Source: Phycisphaerae bacterium (lineage in GTDB: Bacteria > Planctomycetota > Phycisphaerae > UBA1845). Taken from it: a stretch of DNA of 64,000 nucleotides. The position numbers and the translations under genes are program-made. The notes beneath the pieces are model-generated. The model had not been told where the DNA came from and ran no database searches. It worked only from the letters and a program-made list of their open reading frames with translations. The DNA lies in the NCBI GenBank assembly GCA_963666835.2, contig CAXXGO010000006.1, forward strand, positions 896,001 through 960,000, in the 5' to 3' direction. This document shows positions 7,132-47,836 of the stretch, piece after piece (position 1 is the stretch's first letter; each line of letters begins with the position of its first letter).

Positions 7132-8385
7132 ATGTTCAGATTCGTTCATGCCGCCGACCTGCATTTGGATAGCCCGTTCAAGGGAATCACTGCCGAATCC
7201 GAAACCGTCGCTCAGGCGTTACGCTCGGCCACGTTTGAAGCGTTCGACGCCTTGATCGAGTTATGCATCGAGCGCGAAGTCGCTTTCCTACTGATTGCCG
7301 GCGATGTGTACGATGGAGCCGATCGCAGCCTGCGCGCGCAGCTCCGCTTTCGCGACGGCTTGGATGAACTCGCCCGCCACGGCGTCCGTGTGTTTGTCGT
7401 TCACGGTAACCACGACCCGCTGGATGGTTGGGCCTCGGCGATCAACTGGCCCGACGGCGTCCACATCTTCGGCGGGGACGAGGTCGAGACCGTCGAGGTC
7501 GAAGTGCTCGGCAAGGCAATCGCGGCCGTCTCCGGGATCAGCTACAGGAATCGGCGCGAAGACCGCAAGCTCTTTCAGCATTTCGAGGCCACCCGGCCGG
7601 AGCTGTTTCAGATCGGGCTCCTTCACTGCAACTGCGGCGGCAACACGGCCCATGAGGACTATGTCCCCTGCCTGCCGGAGGATCTCACTCAAGTCGGTTT
7701 GGATTACTGGGCGCTGGGGCACGTTCACACTCGGGCGGTGGTAAGCGAAGACCCGTGGATTGTCTATCCCGGAAATCCGCAAGGGCGCAGTATTCGTGAG
7801 ACCGATCAGCGCGGGGCTTTCCTGGTTACGGTGGACGACGGGGGCAAGGTCGACCTGGAATTCTGTCCACTTAACGCCGTGCAATGGCTGGCCGACGAGG
7901 TTTCGATTGACAATCACACCACTATCGACGCTATCGATCGGGCGTTGTCGACCAAGGTGGAGGAACTGCGGGAGAAAGGTGGCGGTCGCCCGGTTGTGTG
8001 CCGACTCTCCTTGACCGGTCGCGGCGTGTTGTATCCCGAACTGCTTCGCAACGACGGCATCGGCGACTTGCTAATCCGGGCACAAGAAAGTGGGCTCACT
8101 GACGACCCGTTCGTGTGGGTGCAGGAGATCGAAATGGCGGCCCGCCCGAACGTGGACTTGGCCAGGCTCCGCGACGAACGCGACTTGTTGGGGCAGGCGC
8201 TTTCGATCGCGGAGGAACTCGGGCGGACTCCGACCTTCTCTAAGGAACTGCACCCTGCAATCGCTCCGCTCTTTGAGGATTCGCGGACCAGAAAGGTGTT
8301 GGATCCGCTCTCGCCCGACGAGCTTCACCGGTTGCTGGCCGATGCGGAGCTGCTTTGTGTTGACCTGCTGGCGAGAGACGAATGA
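7132..8385 (+). CDS. DNA repair exonuclease, SbcD/Mre11 (YhaO-like)
   Basis: HAADLHLD, AGDVYD, GNHD, LGHVH and YPGNPQGR. Confidence 0.92.
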   Translation: MFRFVHAADLHLDSPFKGITAESETVAQALRSATFEAFDALIELCIEREVAFLLIAGDVYDGADRSLRAQLRFRDGLDELARHGVRVFVVHGNHDPLDGWASAINWPDGVHIFGGDEVETVEVEVLGKAIAAVSGISYRNRREDRKLFQHFEATRPELFQIGLLHCNCGGNTAHEDYVPCLPEDLTQVGLDYWALGHVHTRAVVSEDPWIVYPGNPQGRSIRETDQRGAFLVTVDDGGKVDLEFCPLNAVQWLADEVSIDNHTTIDAIDRALSTKVEELREKGGGRPVVCRLSLTGRGVLYPELLRNDGIGDLLIRAQESGLTDDPFVWVQEIEMAARPNVDLARLRDERDLLGQALSIAEELGRTPTFSKELHPAIAPLFEDSRTRKVLDPLSPDELHRLLADAELLCVDLLARDE

Positions 8386-11300
8386 GAATCACCGCCCTGC
8401 ACATCAACAGCTTCGGCATCTTCCGCGGAATGTCGCTGCCGGACGTGCCGCCGGGGCTCGTACTCATCCAAGGCGACAACGAGGCCGGTAAGAGCACGCT
8501 GTTGTGGTTCATCCGCGGCATTCTCTTCGGTTATCCCGACGGACGGTCGCGAGATCCGGGTTATCGACTCGGCGACGGAGAGACTCACGGCGGACGCCTG
8601 GAGATTGTCACTGACCACGACATTCCGTACACGATAGCGCGCCGGGGCGTGCGCGGCGGTGGAGAGGTGACCATTACGGACTCCGCCGGCGGCAGCGGGA
8701 GCCTTCACGACCTACTTGGCGGAACCACGGCGCAGCTCTATCGCAATATCTACGCGTTCAGCCTGTCCGAACTGCACACCATCGACTCACTGCAGGCTGA
8801 CGGTGTCAAAGGCGCGATCTACGGAGCGGCCTCCGGCACTGCGCTGATGGCGCTGCCGCAAGCCCGGAAGATAATCAGCGATAAGCTCGACGATACGTTC
8901 AAATCGCGCGGACAGAAACAGCAGATCAACATCCGGCTTGCAGAACTTGATGCCATCAACGAGAGCCTGCGCGAGACCTCCAAGGACATCGATAGATACA
9001 ACGAGGCATGCACGCAGTTGACGAAGACGGAAGCGGAGCTCGGCGAACTGCTGAGTAGGATGCGTGATAGCCGGATTGAATCCGGGCGGATCGATACGCT
9101 TCTGAAAGTATGGCCTGAGTGGGTCAAACTCCAAGACTGTGAGGAGAACCTGAGAAACCTGCCTCTTGTTGTCGAGTCCTTCCCGGAGGACGGGCTGGGG
9201 CGATTGGAGACCGCGAACCAGGTCCTTCTGCAAAACCGGGAGCGTCTGCGAGAACTGGTGGAGGAGCACGCGATTTTGCGCCGCGATATTGCGGACCTGA
9301 ACGTCGATCCTGATGTTCTTGCAGCCGGTGAGACCATCAGCGTTCTGACCGAAAGCCGTGCGGGATACCTTGCCGCCCGCGCGGACCTTCCCTTGAAGCG
9401 ACAGGCCCACGCATCCGTCGATGCCGAGATTGCGGAACTGCGCCGACGCCTGGGGCCGGGCTGGACGGAGGAGGAGATCCGCACGAGTGACTGCTCTGTG
9501 TCAGCGCGGGAGGCTATTCGCAGGCATGACCAGGGTCTGACTGTTGCCGGAGAGGAGCTCGCCCGCGCGGAGCAAGACGCGGCCGCCCGAGAGGAGACCC
9601 ACAAGCAGACTGTCGCCGATGAACAGAGAGCTCGGAAGAAGGTAGAGCAGTTCGCCGATTCCGACGCGGTTGATGAACAGTTGGTGCGTAGACTGCAGAC
9701 CAAACGCGAGCTGTTCCGCGAGGCGGCGACGGACTTGCCTCAAGTCCAAGCCGATCTGAACACCGCCCGGGCTCGCGTCTTGCAGAACGTCAGGGAAATC
9801 GACGCCCGGTGGACGGTTGAGAACGTGGCCAACTTCGATGTCTCCGTTGCGGCGCAGCAGAAGATTCAAGACTTCGCCGACCGACTCGAGATAACGAAGC
9901 AGGATCGGGATAAGGCCGAATCGCTCCGTATAGCCGCGGTGGAGTTGTTGCGGGCCGGCCGTGAGCAACGCGACGCTGTCCAGGAAGAGTTGGAGCAACT
10001 GCCCGAAGGCTTCGATCGGGATGAACTAACCCGGCGCCTGGCCGCGATTTCCGCACTGGAGGGCGCACTACGCGAGCGCACCGAAAACGCCCGGGAGATC
10101 CGGTTCAGCGAGGCACGGCTCGGCGACAAGCGGCAAGAGCTGACCCGACTGAAGCTGCAGTCTCCCGCGTCGAACAAGGTGCCCCGGTGGGTACCGTTTC
10201 CGGCCCTCTTGATTGCCGCAGCGGCGCCGGTTGCTGGGTGGGCGCTTGGCCAACTGCCGGAGGCGGGGGGTGTTAGTGCCCTGTTTGCGGTGGTCGCCGT
10301 CTTGTGCTTTGCGTGGCGGCGCAGAACCGAAGCGAGATCCGCCGGAGCGCAGAAAGCTCATACCGCCGCGGTCGAAGAGCTGAGCCGCGAGATCCGCAAC
10401 CTCGAATCCGAGCTGGCGGTACTTGCCGAAGGCGAGGTCGCCCGCGAAGAGAAGATCGACAAGCACGCCCGCGCGGCGGCTCTGTCTGCCAAGGCCGATG
10501 CCGAGGAGATCAGCACCGCCCGGGAGAGCATCGAACACGACCTGGATGTACTTAAGAGCAGAGATCGGCTGGAGGCCGACCTGCGCAAACGCAACGAAGA
10601 AGTGCAACGCCTTACCGACAAGCTGGCCGAGACCGATCGGGTATTGCAGGCGCACGCCGACGAAATGGCGGGCGTGAAAGACGATTGGCGGAATCACCAG
10701 CAGCACTTGGGGCTCGCTCCGGAGAGTGCGGTCCAGACCGTGCAGCTCATCTTCACCAAGGTGGCGGCCGTGCGGGATCAGATCGCCGGGCTCGAAGAGC
10801 TCGAGAAGCGAATCGCGCGAATGTCCACCGGCCGTGACAGCTATCTGGATCTTGCTCGACAGGCTCCTCCGCTTGCTCCTTATTGCGAGGGACCGCCGGC
10901 GGATCTGCTCAGTGCGGTGGACCGCTTTCTGGAGGAGGTGCAGCGTCAACAGGACAACATGAAGGAACGGGCGCTGGCCCAGCGTAACCTGGCCGAGGTC
11001 GGCCGGCGCGTGATGGCCGCAAGTGACGCGCTGAAACAGGCCCGGGAAGCCCTGGACACCGCCGCTCGGCGGCAGACCACCGCACAGACCGCGTGGCAGG
11101 AGTGGTTGACCCAGCGCGGATTCGATGGGGACATGTCACCGCCGACGGCGCTGGACACCCTGAAACTCATCGAGGACGGGGTCAGGATGCTTCGGGAACG
11201 TGACCAGCTTGATGACGTGATCGCACGGCTGGATGCGGAAACTGCCGGCTACGAGCAGACTGCGGCCGCGGTTTTTGAGAAGCTGAACCGCTCGGTGCCC

Positions 11301-12329
11301 GGGTCTGACGATCTCGCGGCACGGGTTGAGGAGCTTGGCCGGGAGTTGGCGCGCAACAGAGACGACGCCACGCGCCAAGACACCATGCAGCGGCAGGCGG
11401 AGCACCTGGCCGCGCAGATCGAATCAGCCCGCCGACAGGCGGAGGAGTCGGCCCAGACGATCGCGACGCTGTTCAAAGAGGCCGACGTTGTTGATGAAGA
11501 TACATTTCGCAAGTACGGCCGGTTGTACGCCGAGCGGGTCGGCCTGGGCGACGCGATCGAGCAGGCGAAGTCCACCATTCGCGGAATCTCCGGCGAGATG
11601 GACCTGGAGCTTCTGAAGACGAAGCTGGCGGAGACCTCCCGGGAGCAACTTGACGTGCGGCAGGGCGAGGTCCTTGGGGAGGTTGAGGAACTCGAGAAGC
11701 GGTCGCACGACCTGCGCGATACGAAGGCGGAACTGACGAACAGAATCGAGGCCATGAGGACCGCCGACACGGTTTCGCGGCTACGGGCGGACCGGGAGCG
11801 AGTTCTCGCGGAGATTCGCCCGCTGGCACTGCAGTGGACCCGCTACGCTCTTGCCGAAATGTTATTGGACCGGGCGGGCAAGCGATTCGAGAAAGAGCAA
11901 CAACCCCGAGTAGTACGTGACGCGGCCGAGTTCTTCGGCAGAATGACCGGTGGGAAGTACGAGAGGGTCGTTGCCCCAGTAGGTGCTGATACGTTCGAAG
12001 TTGTGACCGCCGCGGACGCCGAGCGCCGGACCCCCGACCAGCTCAGCCGTGGAACGACGGAACAGCTCTATCTGGCGCTGCGTTTTGGATATATCCGCCT
12101 GCGTGCCGCCGATCACGAGCGGCTTCCCATCGTAATGGACGATATTCTGGTGAACTTCGACCCGCAGCGCGCCACCAGGGCCGCCGCGGCGATTCTCGAA
12201 CTGGCGCGGGAGCACCAGGTTCTGTTTTTCACCTGCCACCCCGAGACGGTCGCCCGGTTCCGGCGCGAAGACCCCACCCTTCCGCTCTACCGGCTCCGCG
12301 AATCCTCGCTGACCGTCGAAACTCCGTGA
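8382..12329 (+). CDS. SMC/Rad50-like ATPase (YhaN-like) with a central TM hairpin
   Basis: GDNEAGKST Walker A, long coiled coil, LSRGTTEQLYLALR signature, MDDILVNFD Walker B and FTCH. ATGA overlap with the nuclease gene. Confidence 0.9.
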   Translation: MRITALHINSFGIFRGMSLPDVPPGLVLIQGDNEAGKSTLLWFIRGILFGYPDGRSRDPGYRLGDGETHGGRLEIVTDHDIPYTIARRGVRGGGEVTITDSAGGSGSLHDLLGGTTAQLYRNIYAFSLSELHTIDSLQADGVKGAIYGAASGTALMALPQARKIISDKLDDTFKSRGQKQQINIRLAELDAINESLRETSKDIDRYNEACTQLTKTEAELGELLSRMRDSRIESGRIDTLLKVWPEWVKLQDCEENLRNLPLVVESFPEDGLGRLETANQVLLQNRERLRELVEEHAILRRDIADLNVDPDVLAAGETISVLTESRAGYLAARADLPLKRQAHASVDAEIAELRRRLGPGWTEEEIRTSDCSVSAREAIRRHDQGLTVAGEELARAEQDAAAREETHKQTVADEQRARKKVEQFADSDAVDEQLVRRLQTKRELFREAATDLPQVQADLNTARARVLQNVREIDARWTVENVANFDVSVAAQQKIQDFADRLEITKQDRDKAESLRIAAVELLRAGREQRDAVQEELEQLPEGFDRDELTRRLAAISALEGALRERTENAREIRFSEARLGDKRQELTRLKLQSPASNKVPRWVPFPALLIAAAAPVAGWALGQLPEAGGVSALFAVVAVLCFAWRRRTEARSAGAQKAHTAAVEELSREIRNLESELAVLAEGEVAREEKIDKHARAAALSAKADAEEISTARESIEHDLDVLKSRDRLEADLRKRNEEVQRLTDKLAETDRVLQAHADEMAGVKDDWRNHQQHLGLAPESAVQTVQLIFTKVAAVRDQIAGLEELEKRIARMSTGRDSYLDLARQAPPLAPYCEGPPADLLSAVDRFLEEVQRQQDNMKERALAQRNLAEVGRRVMAASDALKQAREALDTAARRQTTAQTAWQEWLTQRGFDGDMSPPTALDTLKLIEDGVRMLRERDQLDDVIARLDAETAGYEQTAAAVFEKLNRSVPGSDDLAARVEELGRELARNRDDATRQDTMQRQAEHLAAQIESARRQAEESAQTIATLFKEADVVDEDTFRKYGRLYAERVGLGDAIEQAKSTIRGISGEMDLELLKTKLAETSREQLDVRQGEVLGEVEELEKRSHDLRDTKAELTNRIEAMRTADTVSRLRADRERVLAEIRPLALQWTRYALAEMLLDRAGKRFEKEQQPRVVRDAAEFFGRMTGGKYERVVAPVGADTFEVVTAADAERRTPDQLSRGTTEQLYLALRFGYIRLRAADHERLPIVMDDILVNFDPQRATRAAAAILELAREHQVLFFTCHPETVARFRREDPTLPLYRLRESSLTVETP

Positions 12330-12432: not shown

Positions 12433-12461
12433 TTGACTCGGGCTGCCCGATCCGATAGGAT
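12433..12461 (+). promoter_or_regulatory. Sigma-70-type promoter
   Basis: TTGACT-N17-TAGGAT upstream of the 12489 ORF. Confidence 0.65.
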
Positions 12462-12466
12462 GGGGG

Positions 12467-12481
12467 TGTTACGATGTAATA
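12467..12481. promoter_or_regulatory. Zur/Fur-family-like operator
   Basis: TGTTACGATGTAATA is a near-palindrome with TGTTA-N5-TAACA geometry and overlaps the predicted +1. Confidence 0.5.
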
Positions 12482-12488
12482 TTCCACG

Positions 12489-12815
12489 ATGCGGGTGGAA
12501 CCTAGGGTGATTCGATCGGTTCTGACAATCTCGTTTGGGGCGATGTTGACTGTGGTGGCCAGCGGATGGCCGGCGGCGTCTCATCTGCAGGCTTGCCACG
12601 AGCATCACAGAGAAGGGTCTCATCACGACTCGGACCGTTGCATTGTTTGCCAGACGTTGGTGGCGGCGTCCCAAGGCCTGCAGGTCGCTCCGGCCGCGGA
12701 TATGCTCGAGGTCGCTTATTCCGTTGATGATCATCAACCACCGTCCACTCGGATTCGAGGGCCGGTCGAGTTCCGATCGGCGACTCCCCGCGCCCCCCCT
12801 GAATTCGTTTCCTAG
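12489..12815 (+). CDS. DUF2946-like leader protein (signal/TM, His-rich, CxxC, C-terminal RAPP arrest motif)
   Basis: Hydrophobic N-terminus, CHEHHREGSHHDSDRCIVC, and a C-terminus ending TPRAPPEFVS. Confidence 0.75.
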   Translation: MRVEPRVIRSVLTISFGAMLTVVASGWPAASHLQACHEHHREGSHHDSDRCIVCQTLVAASQGLQVAPAADMLEVAYSVDDHQPPSTRIRGPVEFRSATPRAPPEFVS

Positions 12816-12981
12816 AACATTGTTGAGTTTGCGGTTCGACGTTGTGGGTGTTCGCGGCGCAGTTATGCGCTGACCATAGCGCGCCGGGTAAATCAAACCG
12901 TGCATAGTTCGCGGTAACCGTTCGGTGCGCGAGTAACTTGGAGTACGCGCCGGGTTCAACGCCCGGTGAATGGAGGGTGCA

Positions 12982-13893
12982 ATGATCAAACGACCGATCT
13001 TGGTGATTCTTACGGTGTTGTTGTTTGTCGGGTCTGCGCTGCAGGGACGGGCTCGGGGCGAAACGTGGGGAACTGCGACGTCGCTTTCATCCCAGGACAG
13101 TAGTGCCTGCCCGTTGGCACATACCCATATCGGCAAGAACCCGACATGGAGGCCGGATTGGAGTGACCCCGGCAACTCGGCCGGCGCCACCGATCCGGAC
13201 CCGACCGATGACAACAAACTGTGGTTGTTCTCGATTCCGCCGGTGCATGCGGTTGCGCCTACCCCGGGCTGGCCGAACTGGGGAGAAGAGAACAGTACCC
13301 CGTTCTTGCTACTATCGCCCGCGACTAATCCGAACGGCGATCCGATCTACAAGCCGGGAGACTCGTCGCAGATACTGTACGAAAGTTCTTTCATGTACAG
13401 CGCCGTCGACGGATACGACGATCCGAACGGGGTACTTCATATTGACGGATGGCACTCGGCCCACGGCCCGCAGGGGGCTTGGAACCTCGAGAGCGTCGAC
13501 CAGGCAACCGAGCCGTCGTGGGACATCCGTCTGGTGCGCGAGAGTGTAAGCCTTGCGCAAGATGACTTCTTCATGGCCTTGCCGAATGGCACGACCGTTC
13601 TGACCGCCGACGGTGACGAGTACGCTCTGCAAAAGAGGTGGCTCGATGACTTCTCTGCATGGGGCATGCACGAGCACATGAGCTTCAACTTCTGGCTCGC
13701 CGCTGATGGAAGCGACCTGGGGAGTGAGGTTGTCGCGACGTTCAGCGCCTACGACGCTGGTGGCATGTACACCCCATCGGATGCGTTTGACTTCCGCTTC
13801 AGGGTCGTACCCGAACCTGTGACTCTGAGCATGTTGATGCTCGGCGGGGTCGGGCTGGTCATCCACCGTCGCACCAGGATGAGTCACGTATGA
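12982..13893 (+). CDS. His-rich PEP-CTERM surface protein
   Basis: Signal peptide; CPLAHTH, WHSAH and MHEHM motifs; C-terminal VPEP + TM + RRTR. GGAGG precedes ATG 12982. Confidence 0.85.
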
Positions 13894-13993
13894 CAAAGGT
13901 CTGACGGTCGGCGCGGAGGGTGCGGTCTGCCGGACCCTCCCGCGCCGACCTCGGACGATACTCGCTAAGCGGAAACACGAAAGGAGGCCCGCC

Positions 13994-14728
13994 GTGAGAA
14001 GGACAAAGGCGTTTACGCTGATCGAACTTCTTGTCGTTGTTGCCATCATCGCCCTGCTGATCGCCATGCTGTTGCCGTCGCTGCAGAGAGCTCGGGCGCA
14101 AACCAAGACCATGAGGTGCATGAACAACTGCAAGGAGATCGGACTGGCCGTCGAGCTGTACGGTCAGAACAACTTCGGTCGCTTTCCCCTCAGCGGCGGG
14201 CATGGCGGTGTCGCAGACCCGCAGACCTGGTGGTTCAACGTGTTGGCCCGCGCGGATGTCAATACCTCGCTGCTCTACCGATGTCCAACGGACCCGGCGG
14301 AGAATTTCGTTGACTGGGAGAAGGTGGACTGGGAGGGGGTGGACGACGAGTTCCTCACGAAGCTCCAGGAGAAGCGCTGGGGCAGCTATGCCCTCAACTA
14401 CTTGATGGCCAAGGAGCCCAACCCGTATTGCCACCGCCTTTCGCGAATCAAAAAGCCCACCCACACGATCTTCATCGCTGAGGCGGCGGACACGCTGGCG
14501 GGAGTAGACCACGTGCATCCGGAGCGGTTCCTGCTCATGCCCCCGGAACGCCAGGTGGCCATCGAACGCCACCTCGGCAAGGCCTGCTACCTGTTTGTGG
14601 ACGGGCATGTGGATACCCTGACCCTGGCGGATACCTGGGAGCCGGGAAAGCGGAACCTCTGGGATCCCAAAAACGCGCCCACCTGGAGTGATGATCTGAC
14701 GGCGCCGACACCGCCGCCGAAACCCTGA
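13994..14728 (+). CDS. Prepilin-type N-terminal cleavage / H-X9-DG domain protein (DUF1559-like)
   Basis: [29 protein letters not shown] and [14 protein letters not shown]. Confidence 0.9.
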
Positions 14729-14864
14729 CGTCGTCCGGCAGTCTACTACTAAGTCACACCTGGGTTCTCGGGTGGGCCACCGCTCTTGGGCGGTGCAGGG
14801 ACGGGGCACGGTGCGGAACGTCGAGCGAGACAACATTGCTATTACAACACCTGGAGATGAAACC

Positions 14865-15626
14865 ATGATGCTGCCACACAAGATAGCCGCGGCCACGTCC
14901 CTTATTGTGCTCGTGGCGTTCCAGCCGGTCCGTGCGGACCACGGCTGACCACTTGACCATTTTGCAATTGGTCAATTGCAGGGAAAGCTCTTTGCGGATG
15001 TTGAGGAACTGTACCTCACGCACACGGGGAAGCCGTATCGAAGCCATTACCCACTGAATTACTCGTGGTATCTCAACGCCTACGTAAACGGCGAACCGGG
15101 TTCCGAGCAGATTGAGAATGACCCCGAGCACGAACTAGTAGGAACGCCGGAGACAACGTACGACGTCTGGCTCGATATCGTGGCCCTGTCTCCCAGCCTC
15201 TACGTGTACGTGACAAACGCAGATACCTGGTATTTTGAGGGGGACCGGATTCACCTGAGCAACGTCCCTTATCACCACGTACACGTGGACTACTGGGTGT
15301 TGGCCGCGGACTACGACGAGAATGACCTTATCTACGCCGTCTATAGGTTAGTCGACGAGCAAGACCGGTACGAGCCTTCCGCCGACTTTGCGGTAGTGTT
15401 CAACCGGTCCGTGCCGGGGGACTTTGCATCCGACGGGCATATCGACCTGCAGGACTACGTTCAGATGGCGGCCGCTATGACCGGGCCGGGGACCTCGCAG
15501 CCGGACGCGGAACTTGCAGATGTTGACTACGACGGTGACGACGATGTTGATCTGCGGGATGCTGCTCAGTTCCTGCGCTGTTTCAGTGGCCCGGATGAAC
15601 ATCCTGATCCAAGATGCGCGGAATGA
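14865..15626 (+). CDS. Probable secreted selenoprotein (Sec28) with His motifs and a C-terminal dockerin-like domain
   Basis: GGAG RBS, ATG 14865 and signal peptide MMLPHKIAAATSLIVLVAFQPVRA. An in-frame TGA at 14946-14948 is continuous with ORF 14976-15626. Dockerin-like repeats GDFASDGHIDLQDY and DYDGDDDVDLRD. Confidence 0.75.
14963..14980 (+). promoter_or_regulatory. Bacterial SECIS-like hairpin
   Basis: TGCAATT-GGTC-AATTGCA; the G-first apical loop begins 21 nt after the TGA. Confidence 0.6.
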
Positions 15627-15780
15627 CCGGCGCTGTCGGATTAGGTCTATCGTTCGGGAAGAAGGTGTATCCGGATGGTCCATGGAATTAACGTAGCGCC
15701 GCGGCTTGCCCCTCGTTGTTCTACACATCATTCGACGCATTCACCAACTGCAACCGTTCGATCTTCGATCTCGATTCTCC

Positions 15781-16090: not shown

Positions 16091-16223
16091 CGAGCCGGCT
16101 CGACGCCTTTCGCTGAAAAGTAAGCCGCGCCTTGCGGCCTTTCAGGCTGGGGATTGGGTCGCCGCGGAGTCGGACGGATACGCTTCGCTCGCCCGACAGA
16201 GATGTGTAGAACAACGAGGGTCC

Positions 16224-47326: not shown

Positions 47327-47836
47327 ATGGCCAATCTCGAGAACATTCGTAGCCCGGAAGCACTTCGCGAGGTGTTCGTCAATTACCTCCGCGATCGGGG
47401 CATCAAGTGTACCGCGGCCCGGCGGAAGATTCTCGACGCCGTGTTGGAGCTGCAGGACCACTTCGAGGCCGAGCAGGTGCTGTATATGCTCACCGAACGC
47501 AACCACCGGGTGGGCAAGGCCACGGTATATCGGACTCTGCCCCTGCTGGTGGATTGCGGGATCCTCAAACAGGTGCGGTTCGATGTGAAGCAGGCCCACT
47601 ATGAGCACGCTTTCGGGGCCGGCCCGCACGACCACATGGTCTGCCGGCGCTGCGGGCGGATCATCGAGTTCCGCTCAGACGAAGTTGAAGAGCTCCGCGC
47701 CCGAATCGCTCGGCGCGAGCGGTTCCACGTGGTCAGCCACCGCTTTCAGATCTCCGGACTCTGCTGGGAATGCGCCGTCGCCTGCCCGGTCGCGACGGCC
47801 AAGCCGCCGTCGCGAACCGACAGTTCGGAATCCTGA
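47327..47836 (+). CDS. Fur family transcriptional regulator
   Basis: ATVYRTL, HDHMVCRRCG and GLCWEC. Confidence 0.92.
   Translation: MANLENIRSPEALREVFVNYLRDRGIKCTAARRKILDAVLELQDHFEAEQVLYMLTERNHRVGKATVYRTLPLLVDCGILKQVRFDVKQAHYEHAFGAGPHDHMVCRRCGRIIEFRSDEVEELRARIARRERFHVVSHRFQISGLCWECAVACPVATAKPPSRTDSSES

Follow-up and report, generated by a model that had tools for sequence, protein, structure and literature searches.

A predicted zinc-starvation surface operon of Phycisphaerae with a CopG-like repressor, an arrest-peptide leader and a candidate metal-binding selenoprotein

We analysed a 64,000-nucleotide stretch of DNA (the window) from a Phycisphaerae bacterium, corresponding to positions 896001-960000 of contig C6 in a 6.02 Mb genome (G000) that is 92% complete, and focused on a four-gene unit that encodes a 108-amino-acid leader, a 303-amino-acid PEP-CTERM protein, a 244-amino-acid prepilin-type protein and a 253-codon open reading frame with one in-frame TGA. 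On balance, we read this unit as an operon for scavenging at the cell surface during zinc starvation, controlled by a repressor and an arrest peptide, with zinc probably being the metal. Two unrelated regulators tied to znuABC-type genes, one CopG-like and one of the Fur family, hold the same position at this operon in different lineages, which is the strongest argument for zinc limitation as the predicted signal. An initial annotation of the locus had proposed capture of Zn, Cu or Ni; the role in metal limitation is supported, with zinc favoured over Cu or Ni.

Every component listed in that annotation lies on the plus strand where it had been placed, and the neighbourhood proved conserved in relatives, with the order leader, PEP-CTERM gene, pilin gene and last gene in 41 of 54 loci (four duplicates or fragments left out of the count) and the pilin gene adjoining a gene of the exported-protein families in 54/54. 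The loci were located via the two exported proteins, and the synteny test thus rests on the leader and the pilin. Most of the remaining 13 loci show a contig edge, a leader without CxxC that the search pattern missed, or a shorter paralogue, and a Fur-family gene stands in front of the operon in 19 of the 54. A profile of the last protein matched 25 of 401 genomes of the class, and a wider profile matched 27 of 279 of the order; a metagenome scan returned two loci, one of which covers the TGA site and carries cysteine there. One homologue, P0044, belongs to Sedimentisphaera cyanobacteriorum. As first described, the unit has neither a TonB receptor nor an ABC transporter, and indeed no transporter gene of any kind. 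Three loci (L150 in G848, L063 and L137) have tandem units, in which an additional leader-pilin or pilin cassette immediately precedes the operon.

The annotated sigma-70-type promoter is present (TTGACT-17-TAGGAT, 12433-12461, plus strand); its 9/12 match is by itself at chance level (1 found versus 1.4 expected), and in relatives -35/-10-like hexamers adjoin the operator boxes. Beginning 5 nt past the -10 hexamer is a 17-nt tandem operator, GTGTTAC-GAT-GTAATAT (12466-12482, plus strand), of the pattern GTAnTAC-N3-GTAnTAC. A box resembling it lies in the promoter of znuABC, the sole ZnuA-family operon of G000, which is headed by the gene for P0141 (G000:C1:720073-720417, minus strand; locus L083/L087), a 115-amino-acid protein with C-terminal CPxC, CxxC and His that falls into CopG-like clusters of the ESM Atlas (0.97-0.98) and matches no Pfam or NCBIfam family above cut-off. 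The CopG-like gene was found in 6/34 and 13/23 genomes of two sets that overlap by one. All 14 distinct close orthologues, that of G000 included, carry the tandem box (at most 2 mismatches) in their promoters, with 12 heading znuABC-type genes and 2 a permease, and 5 distant orthologues have no tandem box in theirs. Across 47 promoters of the four-gene operon, the box occurs in 9/12 genomes with the CopG-like gene (6/9 excluding the three that defined the box) versus 2/32 loci without it, with a background of 21/966 windows; related genomes are not independent, and these co-occurrence counts thus overstate significance.

An independent matrix, built from 13 promoters of the CopG-like gene in other genomes with sites located by our consensus, ranked the window operator first and the znuABC promoter third over the 6 Mb of G000, where a first matrix of three other sites had placed the window site only 44th. 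It scored at least 18 at the operon promoters of 9/12 genomes with the CopG-like gene and no higher than 12.9 in 32/32 loci without it. The genome also has three TonB receptors and one weak cohesin match, outside the unit, and none of these genes is among the top 30 matrix sites in the matches listed. It is likely that P0141 binds the window operator, which had been called a Zur-like box and in this genome best fits a CopG-like (ribbon-helix-helix) repressor heading znuABC. P0141 carries the tandem box in its own promoter, an autoregulatory arrangement, and the Atlas clusters include Lentisphaerota and Thermodesulfobacteriota; the CopG-like protein may be a wider substitute for Zur.

In relatives, a Gibbs motif search found a different box, TGCAAC-N3-GTTGCA, in 19/30 upstream regions. 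This box is present in 23/32 operon promoters of genomes without the CopG-like gene and in 18/18 with a Fur gene in the unit, and it matches the Desulfovibrio znuABC-zur box, a computational prediction from a study that also notes znuABC operons without Zur (PMC545781). It is not in the window, where the best match has 4 mismatches to the relatives' box. The Zur-type box and the Fur-family gene thus belong to other relatives, and Zur is probably not what the G000 operator serves; the double control that had been proposed is supported with a CruR-type leader layer and an operator layer that is probably CopG-like instead of Zur. In 10 loci (L017:6209-7021 and nine others), the Fur gene comes after a multi-pass permease that is unannotated and that follows the CopG-like gene in L091 and L127; this permease has a weak ZrgA match (E 0.01) and is a candidate zinc importer common to the Fur and CopG-like regulons. 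In L069, L071 and L073, a divergent gene that we take to be DtxR/MntR-like lies upstream of the operon as a possible third regulator, and two of these three loci lack both boxes.

The first gene of the operon (12489-12815, plus strand) encodes a CruR/DUF2946-type leader, a predicted arrest peptide that has, by reading its sequence, a hydrophobic N-terminus as export signal, followed by a His cluster (HEHH/HH), CIVC at residue 51 (CxxC at 12639) and RAPP at residue 101 (12789). Its PF11162 (DUF2946) score of 18.4 bits is below the 23.7 cut-off, as are those of relatives' leaders. CxxC and RAPP are 46 residues apart, and in 28 distinct leaders the CxxC-RxPP spacing is confined to 44-47 residues in a search that allowed 25-60. 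In CruR, this spacing is 45 residues and the intergenic region 162 bp (PMC9426467); here, 166 nt (12816-12981, plus strand) separate the leader from the adjoining PEP-CTERM gene, with no intrinsic terminator or significant fold in that region (z 0.26 for 12812-12960). The CruR-type anatomy of the annotated RAPP leader is thus borne out, and by analogy ribosome arrest on it is quite probable. CruR and CutF, the tested DUF2946 leaders, are described as sensing copper through CxxC with opposite outcomes, and we infer both the metal sensed here and the sign of the response. Leaders in L135 (G893) and L138 (G930) keep RAPP and have CPVW/CPVF in place of CxxC, after a long His run, which suggests His-based sensing.

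The second gene (12982-13893, plus strand) encodes an exported PEP-CTERM protein (TIGR02595, 18.9 bits, cut-off 16) with the motifs C/H-x-x-x-H-T-H near the N-terminus, W-H-S and H-x-H, and exosortases are encoded in the genome. The last gene (14865-15626, plus strand, ATG at 14865) encodes an exported ZepA-like protein with a signal peptide, a C-terminal dockerin-like repeat (PF00404, 18.6 bits, under the 22.9 cut-off) and a predicted selenocysteine, U28, in HG-U-PLDHF. BLASTP similarity between the two is weak (E 0.002 over 49 amino acids), so the paralogy call needs profiles: HHalign of the two families gave 99.1% (E 7.8e-19, 210 columns), with C47 of the PEP-CTERM protein opposite U28. By this comparison the two proteins are paralogues, as expected from the claim that one domain appears twice, and AlphaFold models of both are beta-sandwiches (pLDDT 77.7 for the PEP-CTERM protein and 91.8 for the last protein); fold searches returned generic Ig-like matches only (best Z 6.1). 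The different anchors do not distinguish them, being interchangeable in both families.

In the last-gene family (44 rows, 26 of them selected with the CxxDH motif, so that the unbiased cysteine count is that of the 48-row set given below), C28, D31, H32, E77-P78-G79, H138 and H140 are invariant or nearly so, as are H47, H49, W157, H230 and H232 in the PEP family (30 rows), and together with the pilin family this gives invariant His pairs in all three operon proteins. "His-rich" overstated a modest content of 3.3% and 4.7% in the two proteins; it is the few invariant histidines that count. The description of the pair as a Cys form and a Sec form captured the alignment of the two residues and missed that the PEP family often has His or some other residue in place of this cysteine; the true cysteine counterparts of selenocysteine are the orthologues of the last gene.

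The nearest tested family is ZepA, a zinc-specific exoprotein with an Ig-like domain A and the site H-X2-9-H-F/Y-H (PMC10957091). A short form from sister operons aligns with both of our families (99.4% and 99.0%), and the best match of its members to NF040463, the ZepA model, has E 8.8e-11 over model positions 138-227; weak matches at E up to 0.5, partly to the PEP tail, extend to 18/30 PEP-family and 9/44 last-gene members. The family is defined by a score above 75 bits to NF040463 and by an identity to ZepA of 35% or more across 75% of its length; by the bit score we set aside membership for both exported proteins, the PEP-CTERM protein scoring 16.4 bits against the cut-off of 75. A scan of 401 genomes of the phylum with NF040463 gave 0 matches at E 1e-8, with no positive control detected. 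The ZepA site is not literal in the window (CPLAHTH; UPLDHF); it is literal in the relative at L017 (HSDAVAHFH), and H-x-H-T-H occurs in many. By profile, then, the exported proteins are distant relatives of ZepA and not members. A cyanobacterial PEP-CTERM cluster of the ESM Atlas at 0.96, with a low recognition score, is a lead, and matches to the last protein in a representative library were swamped by dockerin repeats.

Between the PEP-CTERM gene and the last gene lies the prepilin-type N-methyl/DUF1559/H-X9-DG gene (13994-14728, plus strand), whose product exceeds the cut-offs of PF07963 (30.5/21.2) and PF07596 (28.4/23.3) and reaches 13.3 bits with TIGR04294, under the cut-off of 19, though H-X9-DG-H is present and conserved. 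The annotated DHVH is likewise there, and in 31 family sequences C42, C97, D172-H173-x-H175, R192-H193 and D203-x-H205 are invariant. A strong hairpin between the PEP-CTERM and pilin genes (13899-13958, plus strand, z -4.98) could set unequal expression.

The in-frame TGA of the last gene (14946-14948, plus strand) is a predicted selenocysteine codon. Of 48 homologue rows covering the site, 44 have cysteine and 4 have TGA (G000, G962, G893 and G837), with the downstream frame open in each of the four TGA genomes; among database homologues, cysteine occurs in all 14 that extend over the site, and 4 more are N-truncated gene calls. Cysteine orthologues are 64-68% identical to the selenocysteine protein. 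Contigs of 4 runs belonging to 2 studies show the same TGA, and the assembly itself may derive from one of them. The genome encodes selA, selB, tRNA-Sec and two copies of selD, of which one itself contains a TGA. G837 lies in a separate clade, a single clade for the four TGA genes being rejected (approximately unbiased test, p 4e-54, 24 rows), and its hairpin differs from that of the others; selenocysteine therefore probably arose on two or more occasions, or else was lost on many.

Downstream, a hairpin resembling a selenocysteine insertion sequence (SECIS), UUUUGCAAUU[GGUC]AAUUGCAGGG (14960-14983, plus strand), has a stem of 9-10 bp and a GGUC loop 21 nt after the UGA, a geometry that fits the published model (loop of 3-9 nt with G in the first two places, stem of 4-16 bp, 16-37 nt from the UGA). 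Its energy is -8.0 kcal/mol in a 41-nt window and -9.5 in G962. The GGUC hairpin recurs 21 nt past the UGA in G962 and G893 and past TGC in the close relative G209, and G000 has a GGUC loop past the UGA of one more candidate, AhpC-like by its motif, as compared to 0/1500 random TGA; some stem of at least 9 bp followed 44/1500. The 10 codons after the TGA are the rarest-codon stretch in the gene. We found no matching entry among the 119 families of the selenoprotein inventory in the accessible Table 1 of PMC13188914 and no matching family in BSepDB as available, and no NCBIfam selenoprotein model matches the last protein. Selenocysteine insertion at this codon is very probable from the Cys/TGA alternation, the hairpin and the selenocysteine genes, which support the Sec form first proposed. 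The cysteine-coding genes at L010:9819 (G209) and L102 (G947) keep a SECIS-like hairpin resembling those of their TGA relatives and are likely recent Sec-to-Cys reversions. Two further selenoprotein candidates of G000, labelled from their motifs, have SECIS-like hairpins of the GGUC/GUC type: the AhpC/TSA-like gene with UPWC (G000:C1:1903505, minus strand) and an exported one with UAAC and a 772-codon frame after its TGA (G000:C6:886751, plus strand).

Several observations weigh against the zinc-scavenging reading. The tandem box is missing at the operon in 3/12 genomes with the CopG-like gene and present in 2/3 genomes with a distant homologue only; its consensus alone is not enriched in G000 (16 sites with at most 1 mismatch versus about 20 in shuffles), and matrix ranks 2 and 4 fall in an AT-rich promoter whose gene is unrelated. 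Mn or Fe can likewise be the cargo of ZnuA-family proteins, so that "znuABC" here denotes a family. The DUF2946 leaders tested to date respond to copper. Scores to the ZepA model are far below cut-off (best relative 42.1 of 75 bits) and cover the C-terminal half only, outside ZepA's zinc motif, and the window's last protein has no NF040463 match at all; metal capture by the exported proteins is predicted from sequence, and a Cys/Sec-His site also suits Cu(I). For the selenocysteine, selA is found in 16/26 distinct genomes tested, so that its presence in all four TGA genomes is modest support; the isolated stem, at -6.3 to -6.8 kcal/mol, is weaker than the -7.5 of the published model (PMC13188914), and a competing fold beats the hairpin in longer windows.

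An unlikely alternative is a copper-handling operon, or one that senses zinc through its promoter and copper through its leader, with the exported proteins serving as Cu(I) chaperones or scavengers and selenocysteine as a soft copper ligand. It would fit the CxxC-mediated copper response of CruR and CutF, the general chemistry of Cys/Sec with His, and copper metallochaperones among the weak fold matches (3zk0, Z 4.7; 9yah, Z 4.0). Those fold matches, however, are generic Ig-like; each of the two operator types is linked with znuABC-type loci, clustered neighbourhoods show no recurrent copper gene, and ZepA, the nearest tested family, is zinc-specific (PMC10957091).

Improbable too is that the genes are zinc-regulated without importing metal, encoding structural, adhesive or catalytic surface (metallo)proteins of a pilus-like appendage with a redox or catalytic Cys/Sec. 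The unit has no transporter, Ig-like folds resemble adhesin and pilin domains, the genome is rich in N-methyl and dockerin proteins, and most selenoproteins in the available inventory are redox proteins (PMC13188914). Yet the domain lacks the partner cysteine of a CxxC/UxxC pair, and the Cys/His exchange at the matching site of the PEP family is more in keeping with a ligand than with a redox residue; ZepA, too, serves uptake although it comes with no dedicated transporter (PMC10957091).

We consider it very improbable that a Fur-family protein (Zur) binds the window operator, as the initial annotation proposed. An imperfect 7-1-7 palindrome can be made out in the operator, and G000 has 5 Fur-family genes, but none of these is an orthologue of the Fur clade linked to the operon (identity about 30% at best), four of them adjoin peroxide or iron-storage genes and none znuABC among the matches listed, and from genome to genome the box goes with the CopG-like gene. 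Membership of the G000 operon in a Zur regulon was set aside, the Zur-type box being absent and no orthologue of the operon-linked Fur being found in the 92% complete genome. Least probable of all is that the TGA is a true stop, leaving a pseudogene or an internal start without signal peptide: the weak isolated stem, the competing fold, the single change from TGC to TGA and the loose criteria that hairpins of Cys homologues also pass would permit it, but TGA falls on exactly the same codon in four genomes of two clades with frames open downstream, the GGUC hairpin common to three TGA genes, one close TGC gene and another candidate follows none of the random TGA, and the rarest codons lie just after the TGA.

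In the zinc-scavenging model, a zinc-loaded CopG-like repressor would sit on the tandem box just past the -10 hexamer and leave when zinc is short, a Fur-family protein with a Desulfovibrio-type Zur box taking the same position in many relatives. The ribosome would stall at the RAPP of the leader, and metal on the His/CxxC cluster 46 residues upstream would alter the stall and thereby, on the model of CruR, determine read-through to the three genes that follow. Exosortase would cleave and sort the PEP-CTERM protein, and the dockerin-like protein would be retained on the surface, where both ZepA-like proteins would bind zinc through His/Cys sites, the last one with selenocysteine for the conserved cysteine. 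The pilin-like protein with its His site may help display the metal or bring it in, and captured zinc would be handed to the periplasm and then to ZnuABC encoded elsewhere. A pilus route of metal uptake is doubtful. Rather unlikely in its entirety is a further reading, a pilus-coupled protein zincophore, in which ZepA-like binders, one of them a first exported metal-scavenging selenoprotein, would load zinc onto a His-site pseudopilin that takes it through the outer membrane without a TonB receptor, with a new ribbon-helix-helix zinc repressor replacing Zur and a CruR-type peptide re-tuned from copper to zinc.

The last gene represents a candidate new selenoprotein family, with selenocysteine as a putative metal ligand of an exported scavenger that has natural cysteine orthologues. 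P0141 is a candidate new type of zinc repressor; its defined operator and a Zur-type box replace one another across genomes, and zinc regulons in bacteria without Zur would thereby become predictable. The operon would tie an abundant, functionless planctomycete pilin-like family to one nutrient and place a CruR-type leader in a zinc instead of a copper context; if true, the zincophore reading would for the first time assign a function to the large planctomycete family of DUF1559/H-X9-DG pilins.

Around the operon, an Mre11/SbcD-like phosphoesterase and a 1315-amino-acid AAA_27 coiled-coil (SMC-like) protein are encoded upstream, outside the unit (window 7132-12329). Downstream, inverted copies of an element of about 24 nt (window positions about 15712-15735 and 16195-16222) flank a 450-nt non-coding stretch and may be a small mobile or repeat element. 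A Fur-family gene at 47396-47752, near phoH-like and ribosomal RNA-maturation genes, lies outside the operon-linked clade. Rfam and ARAGORN gave no match within the window.

In the open-access literature we found no paper on the four-gene operon, the CopG-like znuABC repressor or the last-gene selenoprotein; the individual parts each have known relatives, and it is the combination, the selenoprotein family and the repressor that are absent there. As in known selenoproteins, the UGA of the last gene aligns to cysteine and is followed, within the range of 16-37 nt, by a SECIS-like hairpin whose loop starts with G; a few known families (SaoB, SaoX and MbdU) are proposed metal binders, and no family, domain or motif listed in the part of PMC13188914 available matches UPLDH, PEP-CTERM, dockerin or ZepA. 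P0141 resembles the ribbon-helix-helix metal repressors (NikR, CopG family) in falling into CopG-like clusters, and its half-sites resemble the deltaproteobacterial NikR GTGTTAC/GTAACAC; it differs in being a 115-residue protein with CPxC, CxxC and His that heads znuABC, and its half-sites are 3 nt apart, not 13-14, a spacing on which we rejected a NikR-type site for the window operator. The predicted Desulfovibrio Zur regulon (ATGCAACnnnGTTGCAT; PMC545781) has the same box as most loci without the CopG-like gene, often with a Fur gene, whereas the window has the tandem box in its stead.

The leader shares with CruR of Bordetella and CutF of Rhodobacter an export signal, CxxC, C-terminal RAPP and a similar intergenic length, with nearly the same spacing as CruR. 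It differs in scoring below the Pfam cut-off, in its His cluster just before CxxC, and in heading surface proteins and a pilin under a zinc-type operator, not a TonB receptor or copper oxidase. With ZepA (All3515; NF040463; PMC10957091) the operon has in common a signal peptide, an Ig-like sandwich, an N-terminal His motif, a PEP-CTERM anchor (second gene), a zinc-type operator at the promoter, a Fur-family gene nearby in relatives, the lack of its own transporter, and a weak profile similarity in the C-terminal half. The accessible main text of the ZepA paper has 0 mentions of pilin, dockerin, DUF2946 or selenocysteine. Our proteins differ in lying far below the family cut-off, in coming as two paralogues per operon, in the Cys/Sec of the N-terminal motif and in the dockerin-like tail that the last protein has where the other has PEP-CTERM, and here a pilin-like gene and a CruR-type leader are always present.

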